Origin: an uncultured Holophagales bacterium
GTDB lineage: Bacteria > Acidobacteriota > Thermoanaerobaculia > UBA5066
Reading direction: 5' to 3'
DNA length: 64,000 nt
Assembly (NCBI GenBank): GCA_964384675.1
Contig: CAYLNK010000002.1
Span: 1,516-65,515 of the forward strand
Shown: one piece after another, positions 53,063 through 64,000 of the stretch
How positions within the stretch are numbered: position 1 is the stretch's first letter
How the letters are laid out: each line of letters begins with the position of its first letter
Translations under genes and position numbers: made by a program
Notes under the pieces: generated by a model
Database searches by the model: none
The model's input: only the letters and a program-made list of their open reading frames with translations
Told to the model about the DNA's origin: nothing

Positions 53063-56000
53063 TCAGAATCCGAGGCTCGCCTGCTGCGGCGGCCCCGGCG
53101 GGGCGAGCACCAGGACGCGGGGGCTGGCCGTGCTGTTGTCGATCACCGTGAGCGCCCCGACCACGAAGCCGGGCTCGTCGCCGATGGGCTCCAGCGACAT
53201 CGCCACGCGGTCGATCGAGGCCGATCCGATCCCGAATCCGCCCTCGCCGTTCCAGATGTCGTTGATCTGCACCCGCTGCCACGGGTCGAGGAGCCGCTCG
53301 ATCTCGGCGAGGACGCCTCCGGTGGTCCCGTTCACGACGCGGAGCCGCACGCGGGCCTTCTGGCCGCTCACCTCGGCGAGGATCAGGTTCGTCCGGATCC
53401 CGGCGTACTTCTGGAGGCCCGGGTACGTCGTCACCGGGGTGCGGGCCTTGCCTACGGCCTCGGGCGAGAACGCGGTGTAGCTCTGGAACTCGGCCCCCTT
53501 CGTGCCGCGGGAGGGGTTGCCGACCTCGACCGGGGTCGTGACCGAGGCGCGGGCGACGACGCGCCCGATGCCCTCGCCCTCGATCCGGAGCGGGCCCGCG
53601 GTGTTCACGTCGTCCGGCAGGCCGAACAGGTTCTTCACGACGTCCTGGCCCTTGGCGGCCGGCAGGGAGCCGCGCGGGGGAAGCGTCAGCGAGACGCGAG
53701 CGGTGCCGGAGACGTCGCCCACGTAGTCGTAGATGAAGGTCAGCGCGGCCGGCGATGCCGAGCCGTTCGTGACCGAGAGCTCGGTCGTGAAGAACGTGCC
53801 CGAGCCGCCGCGGCTGTGGACGATCGACGGGATGACCCGCGGCGAAGGGGGCGTGGCGAGCGGAGCCGCCGGGACCCGGGTCGCGGTCGTCTCGGCGGGT
53901 CTGAAGCGTCCCGAGAGCGCCTGGAAGCTGGCCGAGAAGTTGTCGATCAGCGTTCCGATCGCGGTGACGCGCCCGCCCCCCGAGATCGGCTCCACGAGGA
54001 GGGAGGCGGCCTCCACCGCGCCGGAAACCCCCAGCCGTTCCAGGAGCGGGAACTGGGTGTTGCCCGACGCGGGAACGTCGACCTCGGCCGAGCCCAGGTC
54101 CGCCCCGTCGCTCCCGACGAGGCGCAGCCGGACGCGCGCCGCGGTGCCGAGCGTCTCGGCCAGGATGATGTTGAGGCGGAACCGGTCGGACACCTTGATG
54201 CCGGTCAGGAGGAGGGGCGAGAGGCCGGCGCCGGTGCCGCTGCCGGAGCCGTAGACCGGGATCTCCGTGCCGTAGCGCGACGAGACGTCGCCGGTCCCCG
54301 GCAGGCCCGACGCCGTGGTGCGCAGCGAGAGCTGCGCGAAGCTCTTCGAGCGGATCTCGACGTGGGCGGCGAGGTCGGTGGTGCCGAAGAGACCCTGGAT
54401 GAAGTCGTAGAGCCGTACCGTGGCGAAACCGGGAATCGCCTGGGTCACCTTCGTGGCGGAGACCTGCCCGTCCTGCCCCGACGGAGACGCGTAGACGTCG
54501 AACGACACCGGGTCGGGCGAGAGGTTGCGGAGCCAGCCGTCGGACGTGAACACGGTGCCGCCGGCGCCTTCCTTGTGGACGCTCGTCGGCACGATGAAGG
54601 ACGCCTCACCGGGGGCGAGGAAGCCGCGGCCGTTGCCGACGACGACGTCGTTCTCCAGGGAGTAGAAGACCTTCACCTGCGCGAGGTCGCCGCCGTCGCC
54701 GCCGGCCGGCGTGAGCGAGAGGACCGTCCAGATCGGGAGAGGGTAGTCGGCCGGCGTGATCCGGGACGGGTCGGCCGAGAGCCTGATGTCGCGCGACGCC
54801 CCGGGCGCCAGCTCGGCCGCGAAGTCGGCGGGGTCGAGGCGGAGCCACGCGCCGCCCGGGCCTATGGACGGGACGAGGAAGATCGGCGAGGAGCCCGGGT
54901 TCGTCACACGCACGGTCTGGATCGGCGCGGCGAGCGGGACGCGGCCCGCCGTCCGGGCGTCGACGATGAGGAGCTCGTCCTGGTCGAGGCGCGGGCGGAT
55001 GCCGGTCGAGCGCGTTCCGGTGACGGTGAGGAACACCTCGGCCGATGCCGAGCCTTGCGGGTAGTCGGCGACCAGGCTGCCGCGCTTCGTGCCGGCGCTG
55101 CCGACAGCGGCGGGAAGCGTGTTCAGCGTGACGGTGACCTCCTGCCCGGCGGCCAGGTTGGCGCTCGAGGGGGAGAACGTGAAGATCGAGTCGGGGGTGC
55201 GGAACGTCACCGAGGCGGAGCTGCCGCCGACGTTCCGGAACCTCACGGTCGCGGCGGGCGGAAGCTCGCCCACCCTCACGGTCCACGCGGGCTCGGCCTC
55301 CTGGGAGACGACGAGGGACGGCGGATTCGGGGCGACGTTGATCGGCACGACGCGCGAGAAGCCGCTCTCCTGTCCGCAGCCGGCGATCGCCGAGACCCGG
55401 AAGAAGAGCGTCCCGTTGGTGGTGGCCGCGGTCGGGTAGGAGAGCGCGAGGTTCCGCGTCCGGATCTCGGTGAGGATCGACCCGGCGCCGAAGTCCGCCG
55501 AGGACGCCAGCTGGGTCCGGTACGTCCCGTCGGCGTCGGTCGGTCCGTAGACGTCGGTCCAGGAGACCGTGAACGAGTCGCCGGCGCGCACGAGGCCCTC
55601 GGGCGCGGAGACGACGTCCGGGGGCGAGGGCGGGCAGGCGGCCACGTTGGGCAGTACGACCGTGTCGAGGACGCTCTGGTCGTTGGTGGGGTTCGGGTCG
55701 GGCTCGGTCGCCTTCACCGAGACGCGGTTGACGAGCGTCGTCGGCTCGGGCGGCGCGGAGACGAACAGCGTCACGGTCCTCGACGTGCCGGCCGGGATCG
55801 TCCCGAGGCCGCAGGTGATCGGGGCCGTTCCGGTGCAGGTGCCGAGGCTCGGCGTCACCGAGATCGGCGAAACCCCGGCGGGCAGGGTCTCGGTGAGGGT
55901 GACGTTCGTCGCCGGCGCCGGGCCGTTGTTCTGGATGAAGAGCGTGTAGGTGAGGAGACGCGTGGCACGGGCCGGACTGGGCGACGCGCTCTGGAACACA

Positions 56001-58798
56001 CCGAGGTCGGCGGAGCCGGGCGGTGCGACGCGCGTCGTCGACGCCGCGGAGTTGTCGTCCAGGCTCGGGTCCGGCTCGAGCGCGCTGATGCGGGCGCGGT
56101 TGGTGATCTGGGGCGCGGCACCGGCGGTGACCGTGGCGGCGATCGAGAGCGTCACGTCCTGTCCCGGCACCAGGGTGCCGAGCGCGCAGAGGATCGGCGC
56201 CGTGCCGGTGCACGAGCCCTGCCCGGAGGTCGCCGAGACGAGCGTCAGGCCGGCCGGGAGGGTGTCGGCGACGACGGCTCCCGTCGCGGTCGTCGGACCG
56301 TTGTTGCGAGCCGTCAGGACGTACGTGATCCGCTGGCCCGGGATCACCGGATCGGGCGAGGCGGTCGAGCTCAGGCGCAGGTCCGCGAGCCTGTCCGTGA
56401 CCGTGACCGTGGCCGTGAAGCTGTCGGTGGCGCCGCAGCCATCGGAGACGCGCACCCAGTAGCCGGTGGTCACGGACAGCGGCGGGGTCGTGAGGCTGTA
56501 CGACGCGGCGCCCGCGACCGGCCGTCCGGTGTCGCCGCTCGCCCCCTCGTACCACTGGTAGCGGAGCGTCCCCGTCCCCGCGATCGCCGCCACCTCGAGG
56601 ACCGCCGCCGTCCCGGTCAGGACGATGGGGCTCGCGGGCTGCTGCGTGATGGTGGGCAGCGCGCAGCCGCCGATCGCGACGCGCCGGATCCGGTGGTTGA
56701 ACGAGTCGGCGATGAAGATCGAGCCGTCGGAGCCGACGGCGACGCTGCCCGGGCCGTTCAGCTTCGCGGCCGTCGCGGTGCCGCCGTCCCCGGAGAAGCC
56801 CTCCTGGTAGTACGGGTTGCCGCTCCCGGCGACGGTGCCGATCACTCCGGTCGAGGCCGAGATGCGGCGGACGCGGTGGGCGTCGGCGATCAGGAGGTTC
56901 CCGGCGGCGTCGAGCGCGGCGTTCCCGATCGGACCGTTCAGCCGCGCCAGCGTCGCGGTCCCACCGTCGCCGAAGCCGTCGGTGGGGTCGCCGCCGCCGG
57001 CGATCGTCGCGATGGTGCCGTTCGCGGCGACCATCCGGAGCCGGCCGTTGCCGGAGTCGGTGATGATCACGGTGCCGTCGGGCATCGCGAGGACGCCGCT
57101 CGGGACGTTGAGCCGGGCCGAGGTGGCGGGGCCGCCGTCGCCCGAGAACGCCCCGTTCTCGTTCCCGACCGGCCCGCTGCCCGCGACCGTGGAGATGGTT
57201 CCGTCGAGGGCGACCCGGCGGATCCGCTGGTTGTCCCGATCGGCGATGTAGACGACGCCGTTCGCCGCGACGGAGGCGGCGACCGGGTAGTTCAGCTGCG
57301 CGGACGTGGCGGGGCCTCCGTCGCCCAGCTTGTCCTCCGGGGTCCCGCCCCCCGCGATCCGGGCGATCTTCCCGCTCGCCGCGTCGACCTTGAAGACCAT
57401 GCCGTTGAAGCCGTCGACGATGTAGAGGTTCTTCGCGGCGTCGAGCGCCACGCCCCGCGGGAAGCCGATCGCGGCCTCCGTCGCGGGGAGGCTGGCCGCC
57501 GTGTCGAAGTAGTAGCCGCCGTTGCCGGCGGCGGTGGAGACGACGCCCTGGGAGACCTTCCGCACGCGCTGGTCGATGTAGTCCGCGACGTAGAACGTGC
57601 CGTCCGTGCCGAGCGCGATCCCGCGCGGCTCGCGCAGGATCGCCCGGGTGGCGGGCCCTCCGTCGCCCAGGTACTTTCCCGCGCCCGCGACGGTCGAGAC
57701 GAGGGTGGTGGCGGCGTCCACCTTGCGCACGTCGCCGTCCGAGACGTAGAGGTTCCCGGCGGCGTCGAAGGCGAGGCCGTACGGCGCGCGCAGTCCGGCC
57801 TCGACCGCGGGCTTGCCGTCCCCGCCGCCGTACGAGCCGTCCCCGAAGACCGTGGTGATGGTCCCGGTCACCGTGTCGATCCGGCGGATCCGGCCGTGGT
57901 AGCGGTCCGCGACGTGGAGGTACCGGCCCGAGGCGTCGAACGCGAGGAAGGAGGGGACGCGGAAGGTGGCTTGCGTGGCGGGCCCGCCGTCGCCGATCGG
58001 GGGCTCGAAGCTGCCGGTCCCGGCGATCGTGGTGATGGTACGCGTCGCGGCGTCCACGCGCCGGATCCGGTTGTTTCCGGCGTCTGCGATGTAGAGGTTG
58101 CCGGCCGGGTCCAGCGCGAGACCGTACGGGCTGTCCAGCGCGGCCTGCGTCGCCGGCCCGCCATCCCCGGAGAACCCCTGTGTGCCGTTCCCCGCGACGG
58201 TCTCGATCAGACCCGTCGACAGCGTCACCTTCCGGACCCGGTGCTGGTTGTACGCGGTGTCCGTGACGTAGAGGTTGCCGTCCTTGTCCAGGGCGAGCCC
58301 GTTCGGGGAGCCGAGCCCGGCTGATGTCGCGGGACCGCCGTCTCCGACCCCGTCCTGCGGGGAGCCCCCGCCCGCCACGGTGCGGATCTGTCCGGTGGCC
58401 GCGTCGATTCGCCGCACCCGGCCTTCGCCGTTGCTGGAGACGTAGACGTTGCCCGCCTTGTCGATGGCGAGACCGAGGGGCGTGCGGATGGTCGCGCTCG
58501 TCGCCGGGCCGCCGTCCCCGCCGCTGCCGCCGCCGCCGTTCCCGGCGACGTTCCTGACGAGGCCCGTCGCGGCGTCGATCCGGGAGACCCGGTTCGACGC
58601 GTCCTCGGCGATGTAGACGTTCCCGGCGGCGTCGACGGCCAGGCCGGTGGCCGCGTAGAGCCCGACCGTGGTCGCGGGCTGGCCGTCGTTCGAGCCGCCG
58701 CCGGCGATCGTCTGGATCGGCTGGGCAGCGAGCGGAGCGGCCAGGAGCGCGAGGAAGACGGGGATCGAAGCGCGAAGCGCTGCCGGGAGAGTACGCAT
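53063..58798 (-). CDS. Giant secreted NHL-repeat / DUF11-domain surface protein (1911 aa)
   Basis: Start at the ATG at 58798 (SD GAGGTGAGG, signal peptide MRTLPAALRASIPVFLALLAAPLAAQ). More than 25 NHL-type beta-propeller blades (…AGNLYIAD…NRIRRVD…). Then 3-4 DUF11 conserved-repeat domains (ADTLPAGLTLVSATSGQGSCTG…) and a long C-terminal region. The upstream ATG at 58831 uses rare codons. Confidence 0.75.
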   Translation of the reverse strand: MRTLPAALRASIPVFLALLAAPLAAQPIQTIAGGGSNDGQPATTVGLYAATGLAVDAAGNVYIAEDASNRVSRIDAATGLVRNVAGNGGGGSGGDGGPATSATIRTPLGLAIDKAGNVYVSSNGEGRVRRIDAATGQIRTVAGGGSPQDGVGDGGPATSAGLGSPNGLALDKDGNLYVTDTAYNQHRVRKVTLSTGLIETVAGNGTQGFSGDGGPATQAALDSPYGLALDPAGNLYIADAGNNRIRRVDAATRTITTIAGTGSFEPPIGDGGPATQATFRVPSFLAFDASGRYLHVADRYHGRIRRIDTVTGTITTVFGDGSYGGGDGKPAVEAGLRAPYGLAFDAAGNLYVSDGDVRKVDAATTLVSTVAGAGKYLGDGGPATRAILREPRGIALGTDGTFYVADYIDQRVRKVSQGVVSTAAGNGGYYFDTAASLPATEAAIGFPRGVALDAAKNLYIVDGFNGMVFKVDAASGKIARIAGGGTPEDKLGDGGPATSAQLNYPVAASVAANGVVYIADRDNQRIRRVALDGTISTVAGSGPVGNENGAFSGDGGPATSARLNVPSGVLAMPDGTVIITDSGNGRLRMVAANGTIATIAGGGDPTDGFGDGGTATLARLNGPIGNAALDAAGNLLIADAHRVRRISASTGVIGTVAGSGNPYYQEGFSGDGGTATAAKLNGPGSVAVGSDGSIFIADSFNHRIRRVAIGGCALPTITQQPASPIVLTGTAAVLEVAAIAGTGTLRYQWYEGASGDTGRPVAGAASYSLTTPPLSVTTGYWVRVSDGCGATDSFTATVTVTDRLADLRLSSTASPDPVIPGQRITYVLTARNNGPTTATGAVVADTLPAGLTLVSATSGQGSCTGTAPILCALGTLVPGQDVTLSIAATVTAGAAPQITNRARISALEPDPSLDDNSAASTTRVAPPGSADLGVFQSASPSPARATRLLTYTLFIQNNGPAPATNVTLTETLPAGVSPISVTPSLGTCTGTAPITCGLGTIPAGTSRTVTLFVSAPPEPTTLVNRVSVKATEPDPNPTNDQSVLDTVVLPNVAACPPSPPDVVSAPEGLVRAGDSFTVSWTDVYGPTDADGTYRTQLASSADFGAGSILTEIRTRNLALSYPTAATTNGTLFFRVSAIAGCGQESGFSRVVPINVAPNPPSLVVSQEAEPAWTVRVGELPPAATVRFRNVGGSSASVTFRTPDSIFTFSPSSANLAAGQEVTVTLNTLPAAVGSAGTKRGSLVADYPQGSASAEVFLTVTGTRSTGIRPRLDQDELLIVDARTAGRVPLAAPIQTVRVTNPGSSPIFLVPSIGPGGAWLRLDPADFAAELAPGASRDIRLSADPSRITPADYPLPIWTVLSLTPAGGDGGDLAQVKVFYSLENDVVVGNGRGFLAPGEASFIVPTSVHKEGAGGTVFTSDGWLRNLSPDPVSFDVYASPSGQDGQVSATKVTQAIPGFATVRLYDFIQGLFGTTDLAAHVEIRSKSFAQLSLRTTASGLPGTGDVSSRYGTEIPVYGSGSGTGAGLSPLLLTGIKVSDRFRLNIILAETLGTAARVRLRLVGSDGADLGSAEVDVPASGNTQFPLLERLGVSGAVEAASLLVEPISGGGRVTAIGTLIDNFSASFQALSGRFRPAETTATRVPAAPLATPPSPRVIPSIVHSRGGSGTFFTTELSVTNGSASPAALTFIYDYVGDVSGTARVSLTLPPRGSLPAAKGQDVVKNLFGLPDDVNTAGPLRIEGEGIGRVVARASVTTPVEVGNPSRGTKGAEFQSYTAFSPEAVGKARTPVTTYPGLQKYAGIRTNLILAEVSGQKARVRLRVVNGTTGGVLAEIERLLDPWQRVQINDIWNGEGGFGIGSASIDRVAMSLEPIGDEPGFVVGALTVIDNSTASPRVLVLAPPGPPQQASLGF

Positions 58799-58853
58799 GG
58801 CGAACCTCACCTCTAAGTGTAGGTGTCTCACGGCGGACGCGCTGTGAGGGGTC

Positions 58854-60203: not shown

Positions 60204-60341
60204 TTCCGGCGGGCCCGCACGGCCGCCGCGACGACGGAGCGAGTCGCCGCGAGACTTCCCGCCTGGTTTCCGGTTGACATGGTTTTCGACCCCCGGATAT
60301 AAGACTACTCTCGGTCTCAACTGGGATAGGAGGAGGAGAGT

Positions 60342-60821
60342 TTGATGCTACCGAAGGCTAGGGTGGAGGGGCTGGTGCTCCGGACCGTCGGGCAGGACCT
60401 CGTCATCTACGACAAGGCCGCCGACAAGAGCCACACGCTCAACGAGACGGCGGCCCTGATTTTCAGGGCGTGCGACGGCACGCGAGGCGTGGCGGAGCTG
60501 GCAGCCCTTCTGCCCGAGGGCGGCGAGGCTTCCGAGCGCGAGTCGCTCGTCTGGTCGGCGATCGCTCAGCTCAACCGGGGCGACCTCCTCGTCGAGAAGG
60601 TCGCGGTCCCGGGCGAAATGAACCGGCGCGAGAGCTTCGCGAAGCTCGCCGCCGCGGTGGCCCTGCCCGTCGTCCTGTCGATGCTGGCTCCCAAGAAGGC
60701 CCAGGCCGTCAGCGGCGACCAGGCGGACGGTGCGCAGGGGAACGACGGGGGCTTGATCATCACGGACGACTCCACGTTCGACGACCCGATCGTCATCGAC
60801 CCGGATCCGATCGACCCCTAG
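60342..60821 (+). CDS. PqqD-family (RiPP recognition element-like) protein with C-terminal hydrophobic segment and Asp/Pro-rich tail
   Basis: Strong SD AGGAGGAGGAGA. Residues about 1-90 follow the PqqD pattern (EGLVLRTVGQDLVIYDKAADKSHTLNETAALIFRACDGTRGVAELAALL). Next comes a signal-peptide-like stretch MNRRESFAKLAAAVALPVVLSMLAPKKAQA. The tail is VSGDQADGAQGNDGGLIITDDSTFDDPIVIDPDPIDP. Confidence 0.65.
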   Translation: MMLPKARVEGLVLRTVGQDLVIYDKAADKSHTLNETAALIFRACDGTRGVAELAALLPEGGEASERESLVWSAIAQLNRGDLLVEKVAVPGEMNRRESFAKLAAAVALPVVLSMLAPKKAQAVSGDQADGAQGNDGGLIITDDSTFDDPIVIDPDPIDP

Positions 60822-60845: not shown

Positions 60846-60878
60846 CTGGGGCCGCCTTCGGGCGGCTCCTTTCGTTCG
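60846..60878 (+). terminator. Candidate terminator/attenuator hairpin
   Basis: GGGGCCGCC-ttcg-GGCGGCTCC followed by TTTCGTTCG. The T-tract is weak. Confidence 0.3.
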
Positions 60879-60943
60879 ATGCGGCCGCGGGGCGTCCGCT
60901 CGTCTTTCGGGCATCATCCGGCACGGGGGAGGGGACGCGAGGG

Positions 60944-62233
60944 GTGGAGCGAGCCGTACCGAAGCGAGGGAGCATCGACTGGCTGATCCAACCGGTCGAG
61001 AAGACGACCTTCTTCTCCGAGTACTGGGAGACGAGACCGCTGCTCGTCCACCGGGAGGCGCCGGGTCATCTCGACGGGCTCCTCACCATCGCCGACGTCG
61101 ACGAGCTGATCGGCTCGGGCCGCGTCGCGTATCCGACGCTGCGGCTCGTTCGCCAGGGGGTCGAGACGCCTCCCGGTGACTACGAGGTCGAATTCCGGAA
61201 CACCTCCGGTGTCGAACGGCTCGCGGACCCGGGAAAGGTGGCGGACCACTTCCGGAACGGCGGCACGGTTTCCTTGAACCAGGTCCACCGGGTCTTCGCC
61301 GGCGTCGCCGACCTGTGCGCCCGTCTCGAGGGCGACCTCTCGCACACGGTCGAGTCGAACCTCTATCTGACGCCGCCCCACGCCCAGGGCGCGCCGTCCC
61401 ACTACGACGTCGTCGACGTCTTCGTCCTTCAGGTGGAGGGTCGAAAGACCTGGCGGGTCTACGAGGACCCGCCCGTTCCGCTCCCTCTTCCGACCGACCG
61501 AGCCCAGCGCGGCGCGGATCCGGGGCGCGCCGCGACGCTGCTGTTCGAGACGGAGCTGCATCGCGGGGACGTCCTGTACCTCCCTCGCGGCTGGGTGCAC
61601 GAGGCGCGGACGACCAGCGAGACGTCCCTGCACCTCACGGTCGTGGTCGACGTCCTGCGGTACGCGGATCTCGCGAGGATGCTGCTCGAGGACGCGTCGC
61701 GCTCGGGCGGCGGCCTGCGTCGGGCGCTTCCGCCCGGGTTCCTCGGGCCGGCGGCCGGCGTCGACGTGATGCGACGCGAGCTGGCGTCGCTCCTCGACGC
61801 GGCCCTCGACCCCGAGGCGCTGACCTCGGTCGTCCGCCGGCTCCGCCAGAAGCGTCGCTCCGCTCCGCGCTTCCTCATCGGGGGCCGCTTGCTGCAGGCC
61901 GAGGCCGCCGAGCGCGCGACGCCGGTGACGCCTGTCCGGCGGCGAGACGGCCTGCCCCTCGAGATCGAGGCCTCGGACCCGGGAATCACGCTTCACTTCG
62001 CGGGGCGCTCCGTGGAGCTGCCGTCCTTCGCGCAGCCCGTGCTCGACCTGACCCTTTCGGATCGCGCCTTCCGCGCGGTCGACGCCGAGCCGCGGCTCGA
62101 CGCCGGGACCGCGCTGACGCTGCTCCGCTCGCTGGTGCGCGAAGGGGTCCTGGTGATCGACCTCGCCACGGAGCCGCCCGATGGCGCCGGCGCCTCCCGT
62201 TCGCGGTCCTCGACGAGCTCGACGAACCCTTGA
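60944..62233 (+). CDS. JmjC/cupin-4 domain Fe(II)/2-oxoglutarate-dependent oxygenase (RoxA/YcfD-like), paralog 1
   Basis: GTG start with an upstream GGGAGGG. Motif NLYLTPPHAQGAPSHYDVVDVFVLQVEGRKTWRVY with HxD…H iron ligands (HYD, …LPRGWVHEA). C-terminal winged-helix-like region. Confidence 0.75.
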   Translation: MERAVPKRGSIDWLIQPVEKTTFFSEYWETRPLLVHREAPGHLDGLLTIADVDELIGSGRVAYPTLRLVRQGVETPPGDYEVEFRNTSGVERLADPGKVADHFRNGGTVSLNQVHRVFAGVADLCARLEGDLSHTVESNLYLTPPHAQGAPSHYDVVDVFVLQVEGRKTWRVYEDPPVPLPLPTDRAQRGADPGRAATLLFETELHRGDVLYLPRGWVHEARTTSETSLHLTVVVDVLRYADLARMLLEDASRSGGGLRRALPPGFLGPAAGVDVMRRELASLLDAALDPEALTSVVRRLRQKRRSAPRFLIGGRLLQAEAAERATPVTPVRRRDGLPLEIEASDPGITLHFAGRSVELPSFAQPVLDLTLSDRAFRAVDAEPRLDAGTALTLLRSLVREGVLVIDLATEPPDGAGASRSRSSTSSTNP

Positions 62234-62243
62234 GATCCGCGCC

Positions 62244-63113
62244 GTGTCGACGTCCGTGACGCCGCCCTTTCTCGAAGCGGGAGTGGTCGAGGCCTTCGGC
62301 GTGCGGCTCGGCGTGCGCTCGACCGAGCCGGGGACCCTGGAGAAGGTCGAATCGCGGCTTCCCGAGGACCTGACGTTCGTCCCGCACGACGTGGCGTTCT
62401 CCGGGGTCGAGCTCGACGGCACTCTCTCCCTCGTGGTGGACGGCGGCGCGCGGGTTCTCCTCGGCCAGGAGACGGTCGCGCTCGCCGAAGACCCGGCCGC
62501 CGGTGTCGACCGGCTGGTGCCCGAGATCCAGCTCTTCCTCCACGAGTTCGCGAGGACCCACGCCGTCGTGCACGCGGGCGTCGTGGGGGTCCGCGGCGAG
62601 GCGGTGGTCCTGCCGGGGCGCTCGTTCGCGGGGAAGAGCGCGCTCGTGGCGGCCCTGGTCGCCGCCGGCGCGACGTACTACTCGGACGAGCTGGCGGTCT
62701 TCGACGAGCACGGCCGGGTGCACCCGTTCCGCCGTCCCCTCGGCCTCCGGCTCGAGCCGGGCCGCCCCCGGGCTCACGTCCCCGTCGAGGAGCTGGGCGG
62801 CCGGGCCGGGCAGGAGCCCCTGCCGCTGGGACTGGTGCTGGTGACGCGCTACGTCCCGGGCGCGCCGTTCGCGCCGAAGCCGATGCAGCGGTCCGAAGCG
62901 TACCGGTCGCTCGTCCGGCACGCGATCGGCCTTCGCCGCCGTCCGGACCTGGTGACCTCGATCCTGAGCCGCGCCGTCGCCGGGGCTCATTGCTGGGCGA
63001 GCAAGCGCGGCGAGGCCGCGCCGGTCGCCGAGTTCCTGATGCAGCAGGCGCCGAGCACGCGGTTCCCCGTGCCGCGGTACGGCGCGATCCGTTTCGTGGA
63101 GCGACCCCGATGA
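62244..63113 (+). CDS. HPr kinase/phosphorylase C-terminal-domain-like P-loop protein (HprK-related kinase)
   Basis: P-loop GRSFAGKSALVAALVAAGATYYSDELAVF matches the HprK catalytic-domain Walker A context. An alternative ATG at 62181 would overlap the JmjC gene by 53 nt. The next gene overlaps its stop (ATGA). Confidence 0.6.
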   Translation: MSTSVTPPFLEAGVVEAFGVRLGVRSTEPGTLEKVESRLPEDLTFVPHDVAFSGVELDGTLSLVVDGGARVLLGQETVALAEDPAAGVDRLVPEIQLFLHEFARTHAVVHAGVVGVRGEAVVLPGRSFAGKSALVAALVAAGATYYSDELAVFDEHGRVHPFRRPLGLRLEPGRPRAHVPVEELGGRAGQEPLPLGLVLVTRYVPGAPFAPKPMQRSEAYRSLVRHAIGLRRRPDLVTSILSRAVAGAHCWASKRGEAAPVAEFLMQQAPSTRFPVPRYGAIRFVERPR

Positions 63114-64000
63114 CACGACGCACGTTCGATCTCGCCTGGCTCCTCTCCCCGGTGGAGGAGTCGGTCTTTCGCGCCGAGCACTGGGAGCGCCGGCCGCTCC
63201 TCGTCCGCCGCGAGGACCGCCGCTACTTCGACGGGCTCCTCTCCTTCGACGACGTGGACCACCTCCTCGGCGCGGGCTGGCTCGCGAAGTCCAGGATCCG
63301 GCTCCTGCGCGACGGGGACGAGCTGAAGGCCGAGACTTTCCACCACTCCTTCCGCGACGGCGAGGCGGTCGCCAACCCGGACAAGATCGCCTCCCACTAC
63401 CTGTCCGGCGGGACGATCGCGGTGAACCAGCTCCACCTCTCGTGGCCGCCGCTCGCCGAGCTGTGCGCCAAGCTGGAAGCGATCTTCTCGCAGCGCGTGC
63501 AGACGAACATCTACTTCACGCCACCCGAGGGGCAGGGCTTCAACGCTCACTTCGACACGCACGACGTCTTCGTCCTGCAGGTCGCGGGGCGGAAGACGTG
63601 GCGCGTCTACGACCGTCCGCCGGTGGAGCTGCCGCTCGTCGAGCAGAGCTGGAAGCGGACGGACGGTCCGACGCCGCCGCACGAGACGCTCCTGTTCGAG
63701 ACCGAGCTCTGCACCGGCGATCTCCTCTACCTGCCCCGGGGCTACGTACACGAGGCGCACACGAGCTCGGAGCTGTCGCTCCACCTGACCGTCGGCGTCA
63801 TCGCGCTCACCTACGCCGACCTGGCCAAGAAGGCGATCGACCTCCTGGCGCGGCGGGACGTGCGGTTCCGGAGGACGCCGCCGATCGGCTTCCTCAACGG
63901 CGGCGAGGCGCTCGAGGGCGCGGCGGCGGCCCTCGCCGAGCTCGCCCCGGAGATCGGGAAGCCGGAGACGGTCGGCGCGGTCGTGGCGCGCCTCGAGGAG
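63110..64000 (+). CDS. JmjC/cupin-4 domain Fe(II)/2OG oxygenase, paralog 2 (partial, continues past window end)
   Basis: Translation from the ATG at 63110 is MTRRTFDLAWLLSPVEESVFRAEHWERRPLLV…NIYFTPPEGQGFNAHFDTHDVFVLQVAGRKTWRVY…LPRGYVHEAHT, about 45% identical to paralog 1. There is no stop in the window, hence it is absent from the ORF track. Confidence 0.75.
   Translation, partial: MTRRTFDLAWLLSPVEESVFRAEHWERRPLLVRREDRRYFDGLLSFDDVDHLLGAGWLAKSRIRLLRDGDELKAETFHHSFRDGEAVANPDKIASHYLSGGTIAVNQLHLSWPPLAELCAKLEAIFSQRVQTNIYFTPPEGQGFNAHFDTHDVFVLQVAGRKTWRVYDRPPVELPLVEQSWKRTDGPTPPHETLLFETELCTGDLLYLPRGYVHEAHTSSELSLHLTVGVIALTYADLAKKAIDLLARRDVRFRRTPPIGFLNGGEALEGAAAALAELAPEIGKPETVGAVVARLEE

Follow-up and report, generated by a model that had tools for sequence, protein, structure and literature searches.

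We analyzed a 158-residue protein encoded on the + strand of a 64,000-nucleotide stretch of DNA from an uncultured Holophagales bacterium (contig CAYLNK010000002.1, positions 1,516 to 65,515 of the forward strand); the whole stretch is referred to below as the window. The protein joins in a single open reading frame a PqqD-like RiPP recognition element (RRE; RiPP, a peptide made on the ribosome and then modified post-translationally), a twin-arginine-type signal or anchor segment, and an acidic tail, and by its sequence it is a divergent member of a large unannotated family. Our preferred interpretation, to which we assign a probability of roughly 0.5, is that it is a self-recognising exported pro-protein, in which the RRE would act in cis, an internal signal of the twin-arginine translocation (Tat) type would direct export, and the passenger would be released. 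More broadly, the family appears to consist of RRE-guided, signal-peptide-exported ribosomal peptides and to be both large and undescribed. The features of the gene, in window coordinates, are as follows.

60345..60821, + strand: complete gene, 158 aa, RRE followed by twin-arginine-type signal/anchor and acidic tail (open reading frame, gene calls on public contigs, GC at codon position 3 of 0.91-0.95).
60328..60337, + strand: Shine-Dalgarno sequence AGGAGGAGGA, strong, 8-17 nt before the ATG at 60345 (read directly).
60345..60608, + strand: PqqD/RRE domain, residues 1-88, three strands and then three helices (Pfam PF05402, AlphaFold2 (AF2) model, PDB fold matches).
60618..60620, + strand: in-frame ATG inside the gene (Met92), rejected as a start codon (homologous codons, no Shine-Dalgarno sequence).
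60618..60707, + strand: putative signal/anchor MNRRESFAKLAAAVALPVVLSMLAPKKAQA, residues 92-121 (family column conservation, Kyte-Doolittle maximum).
60624-60629, + strand: twin arginine (RR) of the signal/anchor segment.
60645-60689, + strand: h-region of the signal/anchor segment.
60699-60707, + strand: AQA of the signal/anchor segment.
60708..60818, + strand: Cys-free acidic passenger VSGDQADGAQGNDGGLIITDDSTFDDPIVIDPDPIDP, residues 122-158 (composition, orthologue comparison, AF2).

The frame runs from a TTG at 60342 or an ATG at 60345 to the stop codon at 60819-60821, and the ATG is the start chosen by gene callers on public contigs. A sequence-only reading of this DNA had described one open reading frame holding an RRE of about 90 residues, a signal-peptide-like segment, and an acidic tail; we recovered this arrangement at the same positions, and the peptide strings it quoted match the translation exactly. 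GC at codon position 3 is high along the entire frame (PqqD part 0.91, RR/hydrophobic part 0.94, tail 0.95), so all of it is coding. Seventeen contigs from independent samples carry the identical protein, and therefore the fusion is genuine and no assembly artefact. Finally, the order of RR, at least 13 uncharged residues, and AxA is more than chance, since it is seen in 263 of 271 collected homologues.

To define the family, we searched 1.84 billion cluster representatives (50%-identity clusters) with a sensitive method and obtained 4671 matches at E ≤ 1e-3 and 1330 at E ≤ 1e-10. Almost all of the best 150 matches span query residues 1 to ~120-137 and then end, because the sequence is hypervariable after the AxA: in alignments, residues 1-121 are conserved and everything beyond is not. 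(Conservation counts were taken over the 271 collected members and tail counts over 263.) Members occur in Acidobacteriota (Blastocatellia, Pyrinomonadaceae, Vicinamibacterales), Chloroflexota, Gemmatimonadota, Actinomycetota, Solirubrobacterales, Methylomirabilota, and others. Their source labels are 'PqqD family protein' or 'hypothetical' only, and no NCBIfam model attains its cutoff for any cassette protein of the window or of a typical family locus.

The passengers are hypervariable and mostly of the disulfide type. Four or more Cys are present in 229 of the 263 tails, and the number of Cys is even in 224 and odd in 13, with six as the mode; because even counts fit disulfide-bonded domains, the passengers look extracytoplasmic. 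A common spacing, C-x6-C-x5-CC-x3-C-x4-C, corresponds to the six-Cys inhibitor-cystine-knot framework. Searched on their own, family tails give weak-to-threshold Pfam matches to the UPF0506, Toxin_12, omega-atracotoxin, and conotoxin families. For P0241, a typical member, the AF2 model of the tail has a predicted local distance difference test score (pLDDT) of 78-90. The family may thus hold a large store of knottin-like peptides that bacteria secrete. Most relatives (for example at L008 7965-8453, at L075 9001-9477, and in P0012 and P0241) end in a 6-Cys mini-domain of 27-40 residues. Rarer passengers behind the same RRE and RR-signal module include peptide methionine sulfoxide reductase (MsrA/PMSR), IPT/TIG repeats, and an SH3_3 domain (L041 7968-8987, L049 7806-9392, and P0049). 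A smaller share of the tails consists of low-complexity sequence lacking Cys, which is acidic, His/Asp, Asn/Gln/Gly, or Thr- or Pro-rich. Tandem paralogues, two or three per locus, carry differing tails (L040 7816-9864, L011, L012, L013, L008, L053, and L054).

The signal/anchor segment of the window protein consists of NRR, then LAAAVALPVVLSMLA, then PKKAQA. Its stretch LAAAVALPVVLSMLAP provides 16 uncharged residues, followed by KK-AQA with a small-x-small motif of the cleavage type, and the best 19-residue Kyte-Doolittle window (residues 97-115, mean 1.9) is the hydropathy maximum of the protein. Across the family, the first Arg is present in 271 of 271 members and the second in 269 of 271, with Ser or Thr directly before the pair in 242 of 271. 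Pro108 is kept in 266/269 and Pro116 in 267/270, position -1 of the AxA is Ala in 248/268 (93%), and position -3 is Ala, Val, or Ser in 246/268. Judged by the SRRxFLK motif, the family consensus, [ST]RRx[VLIMF][ILMV][RK]..G-AAAVALPVV-TSIVAP-T-A-A-Q-A, has the form of a textbook twin-arginine signal; a strict Tat-style motif is present in 156 of 263 members. The h-region of the family is mildly hydrophobic and rich in Ala, Gly, and Thr, and the c-region often contains a basic residue (KK in the window protein). In family alignments the segment is conserved more strongly than a generic transmembrane helix. Because the small-x-small motif is conserved, and because of the types of passenger that follow it, translocation with cleavage appears favoured over a plain membrane anchor.

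Two further observations concern the vicinity of the AxA. A basic residue at position 118 (K117-K118 of the window protein, 60693-60698) is found in 7 of 269 family members, yet it is present in P0001, P0002, P0013, and P0014, which form the clade associated with JmjC genes (described below); it may be a Sec-avoidance feature or an alternative target of the JmjC proteins as Lys/Arg hydroxylases. We also considered Ser/Thr two residues after the AxA as a universal phosphorylation site and ruled this out, Asn being about equally common there (S109 / T76 / N61).

The tail of the window protein comprises 37 residues, of which 10 are Asp, has a net charge of -10, and contains no Cys, Arg, His, or Lys. 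It is disordered in the AF2 model and has no knottin-type Pfam match. Compared with an 86%-identical orthologue (locus L071), its 37 codons contain 8 synonymous changes and 5 that are non-synonymous but conservative, and the 90 codons of the RRE contain 23 synonymous and 14 non-synonymous changes; these similar patterns indicate that the tail is under constraint comparable to that of the RRE. The sequence-only reading had held that a poorly conserved linker in homologues would count against a precursor. Family-wide the tail is indeed poorly conserved in the formal sense, but its variation is that of hypervariable, cargo-like sequence; the idea of a junk linker fails, both on the RRE-like pattern against L071 and on the folded 6-Cys domain in which most relatives end.

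Residues 1-88 are, on structure prediction, an RRE of the lasso B1 type, for which leader binding is predicted. The Pfam PqqD match (PF05402), at 26.5 bits, exceeds the gathering score of 23.4 and covers residues 20-58, and the AF2 model has pLDDT >90 across residues 1-88, with strands at 10-15, 18-23, and 28-32 and helices at 34-42, 49-53, and 62-78. The top PDB fold matches are the lasso B1 proteins 5v1u, 5v1v, and 6jx3 (TbiB1 and another lasso B1), with template modelling scores of 0.73-0.79 normalised to the target and root-mean-square deviations of 2.2-2.7 Å; these solved structures are complexes with their leader peptides. The best NCBIfam match for the RRE is TIGR04353 PqqD_rel_X, at 20.9 against an equivalog cutoff of 35. 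The family RRE has two almost invariant Cys (AHCLN and ACDG), of which the window protein retains Cys43 and has Thr at residue 31.

We then considered the genes that accompany the family. In the window and on the full-length contig L001, the operon order is family gene, JmjC, HprK-like, JmjC, and NTP_transf_5. The features downstream of the gene are as follows.

60848..60879, + strand: terminator- or attenuator-like hairpin GGGGCCGCC-TTCG-GGCGGCTCC with TTTCGTTCGA after it, separating the precursor-like gene from the enzyme genes.
60944..62233, + strand: JmjC_2 / ribosomal-oxygenase-like Fe/2-oxoglutarate hydroxylase no. 1, 429 aa (Pfam PF08007, 1.7e-26).
62244..63113 (alternative start 62181), + strand: HprK-related P-loop protein, 289 aa (TIGR04352 HprK_rel_A).
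63110..64000, + strand: JmjC_2 hydroxylase no. 2, incomplete because the window stops here; on L001 it has 404 aa.
Beyond the window end, after JmjC no. 2: NTP_transf_5 nucleotidyltransferase, 398 aa.

The orthologous locus L071 retains the same five genes, and its flanking AKR and GDSL genes differ. TIGR04352 matches the HprK-like protein at 3.4e-14 over the P-loop region, with a score of 52.6 against an equivalog cutoff of 200. Typical Cys-rich members have the arrangement HprK-like gene, family gene, NTP_transf_5, and these typical loci contain no JmjC, dedicated protease, dedicated transporter, lasso B2, or lasso C gene. Among 64 genome loci, the kinase-like gene is adjacent in 41; the nucleotidyltransferase gene is present in 34, and both genes in 30. 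In lasso peptide systems, a homologous kinase and nucleotidyltransferase phosphorylate the C-terminal Ser of the precursor and then transfer a hexose onto the phosphate (PMC8498205).

The hairpin starts 27 nt past the stop codon of the family gene, is GC-rich with a UUCG loop and a T-rich stretch after it, and lies in a region with a fold z of -3.15. The stem-loop is conserved in L071 despite diverged flanks, and clear terminators also separate the family gene from the downstream HprK-like gene in L004, L016, and L036. We rejected the hairpin as a family-wide feature: it is present in several loci and is not general (median z = -0.29). A hairpin between a precursor gene and its enzyme genes is a familiar arrangement in RiPP operons, and here it may set the ratio of precursor to enzyme transcripts. 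Two traits of the kind expected for precursors, tandem paralogues with different tails and a terminator-like hairpin ahead of the enzyme genes, speak for the pro-protein interpretation. Other genes lie nearby. An upstream gene (window 53063-58831, - strand) encodes a protein of 1911 aa that has NHL/TEN_NHL/CLIPPER repeats and a signal-like N-terminus, and convergent HTTM (vitamin-K-carboxylase-like) and Acyl_transf_3 genes lie just past the operon and outside the window (L001 16328-18930, - strand); L071 likewise has an HTTM gene close to its orthologous operon. A reading of the region as a defence system was rejected, as PADLOC gave no match.

Tail type co-varies with the tailoring genes, and the data support this association: wherever a JmjC gene was found beside the family gene, the tail is acidic and has no Cys (the window/L001, L071, L070, L074, and L077, the last with a tail beginning SSGPDGNDGTIDGDGAGGPDG). 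In L070 the N-terminus of a JmjC protein begins ~10 nt past the stop codon of the family gene, after which the contig ends, and in L074 the JmjC gene is convergent and 2.3 kb away. We found no JmjC gene beside the family gene in L004, L075, or L076, or anywhere in the set of 64 genome loci (L006-L069, with tails that are mostly Cys-rich). For the closest acidic-tail relatives, P0013-P0015, P0037, and P0045, whose contigs are mostly <4 kb, the context is partial. A metagenome scan centred on 80 JmjC loci found the cassette only in L077, along with a different cluster in L136; since so few loci carry it, the JmjC relatives mostly belong to other contexts. That different cluster (L136 1923-8221) is RiPP-like and encodes NTP_transf_5, an HprK-like protein, a radical SAM protein, a stand-alone 90-aa PqqD, and JmjC.

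The two JmjC genes of the window are paralogues (45% identical) that flank the HprK-like gene. The HxD...H triad is intact in both proteins, and in no. 1 the alignment places it at the invariant residues H153, D155, and H219. Their closest solved relatives are the ribosomal oxygenases NO66, MINA53, and YcfD, and as in those enzymes, the C-terminal ~100 residues of both proteins have a winged-helix or RRE-like sequence pattern. PF08007 proteins with RRE-like domains occur in RiPP-like contexts (PMC12710340), and JmjC hydroxylases that act on RiPP precursors include BipG (PMC12707348) and CzlI (PMC11575548).

For the export route, the cleavage, the identity of the modified residues, and the action of the RRE in cis, we infer the following sequence of events. 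Residues 1-88 would stay in the cytoplasm, where the RRE would in cis either dock the co-encoded enzymes or hold the signal segment until these enzymes have acted. The docked enzymes would be the HprK-like P-loop kinase and NTP_transf_5, joined in the window clade only by the two ribosomal-oxygenase-type JmjC hydroxylases, and they would modify the protein before or during export, most likely on the acidic tail. Residues 92-121 would serve as an internal twin-arginine-type signal that first acts as an N-in/C-out signal-anchor; the passenger (residues 122-158) would then be translocated, and signal peptidase would cut after Ala-Gln-Ala121. The product would be a 37-residue polyanionic peptide outside the cytoplasm, probably hydroxylated and/or phospho-modified. 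The sequence-only reading had posed a membrane-anchored RRE and a precursor fused to its own recognition element as alternatives. Our analysis favours a fused precursor with an anchor, and the protein is probably both at once.

Several findings weigh against this interpretation. The putative signal begins at residue 92, behind a folded domain, and so is not N-terminal as a Tat signal would be; a Tat or Sec signal behind a folded domain of 91 residues is unusual. The motif of the window protein, NRRESFAK, departs from SRRxFLK in that the RR is kept and one residue is out of register, and its segment is two residues shorter than that of the family. The AF2 model shows no confident docking of the RR/h-region or the tail onto the RRE, and pLDDT falls below 60 for residues 94-146; in P0241, a short strand at VTSI has low confidence, and there is no confident cis contact there either. 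Neither enzyme is nearby in ~20 of the 64 genome loci, which are thus orphans. Lasso kinases require a C-terminal Ser (PMC8498205), and the window tail ends in Pro and typical tails in Cys-Ala. The sequence-only reading had named Ser/Thr of the tail as potential phosphorylation sites and Asp/Pro as potential hydroxylation sites; the nearest JmjC relatives hydroxylate Arg or His, and the tail has neither. Finally, four of the five JmjC-positive cases come from one clade (P0001, P0002, P0013, and P0015), with only L077 more distant, so the link between JmjC and acidic tails stands for a small number of independent events.

The alternative that survives best, which we nevertheless consider unlikely, is a membrane-tethered RRE scaffold: the signal-anchor would remain uncleaved and keep the RRE at the membrane's inner face, the RRE would there present some other, separately encoded peptide to the kinase-like, nucleotidyltransferase, and JmjC proteins, and the tail would be a mere short appendage outside the cytoplasm. 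The hydrophobic segment is long enough to span a membrane, RREs normally bind their peptides in trans (5v1u and 6jx3 are complexes of B1 with a leader), the AF2 models lack cis docking, and stand-alone PqqD proteins are known from related clusters (L136 and the TIGR04353-type system). However, a plain anchor would not be expected to conserve Ala at -1 and a small residue at -3. Nor do the tails resemble appendages, being folded, of the disulfide type or known extracytoplasmic domains, and hypervariable like cargo, with tandem paralogues that differ chiefly in this part and accessory enzymes that track its type. The scaffold also calls for a separate peptide gene, and the operon offers no candidate. 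Its sole intergenic gap is 122 nt; a 35-aa open reading frame there (60879-60986) was rejected because it runs into the start of the JmjC gene and L071 shows no conservation of it. When we searched with a profile of the C-terminal part for genes encoding signal and tail alone, nearly all short matches retained RRE helix 3, and they are therefore mostly truncated gene calls; the sole possible exception is the 73-aa P0283 on a 1-kb contig, which has no obvious RRE helix 3. The separate precursor gene that the sequence-only reading had named as contrary evidence was thus found neither in the operon nor by the profile search, and in the homologue comparison it had proposed, the tail is fused in the same frame and no stand-alone small open reading frame appeared.

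It is improbable that the protein is a single-pass transmembrane sensor or regulator in the manner of ToxR/CadC or an anti-sigma factor, with a cytoplasmic winged-helix domain for signalling or for binding DNA or protein and a tail that senses an outside cue. Its sequence and fold fit PqqD and lasso B1 and not the DNA-binding winged helix-turn-helix families, even though a cytoplasmic winged-helix-like domain, one transmembrane segment, and a small Cys-containing outside domain do resemble such regulators. An extracytoplasmic function (ECF) sigma / zf-HC2 anti-sigma pair is encoded ~10 kb upstream, but the consistent linkage of the family is to enzymes of the lasso-tailoring type and not to regulators. 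Knottin-like or polyanionic tails of 27-40 residues and MsrA passengers would make odd sensors, and the conserved AxA likewise argues against this role.

An internal start at the ATG of MNRRE had also been suggested. At the codon homologous to Met92, we found ATG in 8, GTG in 1, and TTG in 1 of ~60 loci; the remaining codons include CTC, CTG, CTT, CTA, ATA, ATC, ATT, GTT, ACG, and others, and across the family the column favours a hydrophobic residue (L/V/I/M). We looked for a Shine-Dalgarno sequence before Met92 and saw none, unlike the strong one at the ATG at 60345. On the identity of the codon in ~60 loci and the missing Shine-Dalgarno sequence, we rejected initiation at Met92. Dual initiation, by which a start at Met92 would yield a 67-aa pre-peptide recognised in trans by the RRE, either full-length or folded separately, is therefore very improbable: MNRRESFAK... 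would form a good N-terminal Tat-type signal and hydrophobic residues are usual at this position, but only 10 of ~60 loci have a start codon, and the short database entries that begin near the RR are mostly the truncated gene calls noted above (P0283 possibly excepted).

The chief means of discovering ribosomal natural products independently of their class is the RRE, which normally either is separate from the enzymes or forms part of one. In the present family, with its several thousand sequence clusters, it is joined to the presumed substrate and to a general export signal. If the pro-protein interpretation is correct, this would be a new kind of precursor architecture, which present genome-mining tools would mis-score as a chaperone; it would also point to a large store of bacterial knottin-like secreted peptides in Acidobacteriota, Chloroflexota, and Gemmatimonadota and supply a concrete substrate, open to testing, for the long-unexplained cassette of HprK-related kinase, PqqD, and nucleotidyltransferase. 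The window member, an unusual acidic, JmjC-associated variant, would be a convenient test case, as hydroxylation or phosphorylation of a 37-mer should be easily visible by mass spectrometry. A bolder proposal, which we regard as rather doubtful, is that these are a new class of ribosomal peptide systems, with the window protein as the founding example, in which a folded RRE joined to a Tat-type signal serves as the leader; the RRE would in cis hold its own signal/recognition segment, like a built-in Tat proofreading chaperone, until the enzymes have acted, after which export and cleavage would follow. Such a class would supply thousands of knottin-like mini-proteins across soil phyla and, in the window, a poly-hydroxy-Asp/phospho polyanionic peptide that might bind Ca or Fe as a metallophore.

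We compared the family with known systems. It has features of RiPP precursors, namely a conserved leader with a hypervariable core and adjacent modifying enzymes (with few independent JmjC lineages). The closest RRE fold is that of lasso B1, and the neighbours of the window gene, an HPr-kinase-like P-loop protein and an NTP_transf_5-type enzyme, are of the same types as the lasso tailoring enzymes (paeninodin PadeK, ThcoK/SyanK; pseudomycoidin PsmK/PsmN). However, the window RRE is fused to a presumed substrate as well as to an export signal, the tails lack a terminal Ser, and the presumed products are linear acidic or disulfide-rich peptides and not lariats. The Pfam families of the lasso B2 (transglutaminase-like) peptidase and C (Asn-synthetase-like) cyclase were absent within 10 kb on L001 and in L071, L075, and L076, and because neither gene is present this is not a lasso cluster. 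The HPr-rel-A system (TIGR04352 and TIGR04353), an uncharacterised conserved cassette, supplies the best NCBIfam matches for the RRE and the kinase-like protein and the same kind of partnership, but TIGR04353 models a stand-alone domain of ~74 aa with no signal or tail, and as the scores are far below the cutoffs, the window proteins are not members of these equivalogs. The window JmjC proteins resemble BipG and CzlI, as well as YcfD, NO66, and MINA53, in being PF08007 proteins with an intact triad; they differ in that Arg and His, the targets of ribosomal oxygenases, are missing from the tail and that two paralogous genes flank a kinase-like gene. Our literature searches turned up no account of an RRE joined to both a signal peptide and cargo or of PqqD with a Tat signal, and nothing on an 'HprK-related kinase', on PF14907 in such a context, on the function of the cassette, or on knottins with an RRE in bacteria.

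Conceptual parallels are the long leaders of the NHLP and Nif11 types, which derive from folded proteins, and the cis-fused borosins (OphMA); these also combine a large, conserved, protein-like N-terminal module with a short hypervariable C-terminal core, with several paralogues per genome. None of those leaders is an RRE; C39-peptidase transporters cut them off at GG motifs, and in the borosins the fused module is the enzyme itself. Some Tat signals have proofreading chaperones, such as TorD, DmsD, and NapD. The family shares with Tat signals the RR consensus, the h-region, the basic c-region, and the AxA, and its RRE could likewise hold the signal until maturation, but the signal is internal, and what would hold it is a domain of RRE fold to which it is covalently linked. 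Judged by its sequence features, the family would work most like the bufferins (BufA), small Cys-containing precursors that, in place of a leader and transporter dedicated to them, are exported by a general-secretion signal peptide and cut by signal peptidase (PMC11626156) after modification in the cytoplasm that is helped by an RRE-type partner (PMC12710340). In bufferins, the signal is N-terminal and of the Sec type, the RRE partner is separate, and the enzymes are MNIO/DUF2063 and not kinase-like, nucleotidyltransferase, or JmjC proteins; common to both, on our interpretation, would be a RiPP precursor that uses the general export machinery.

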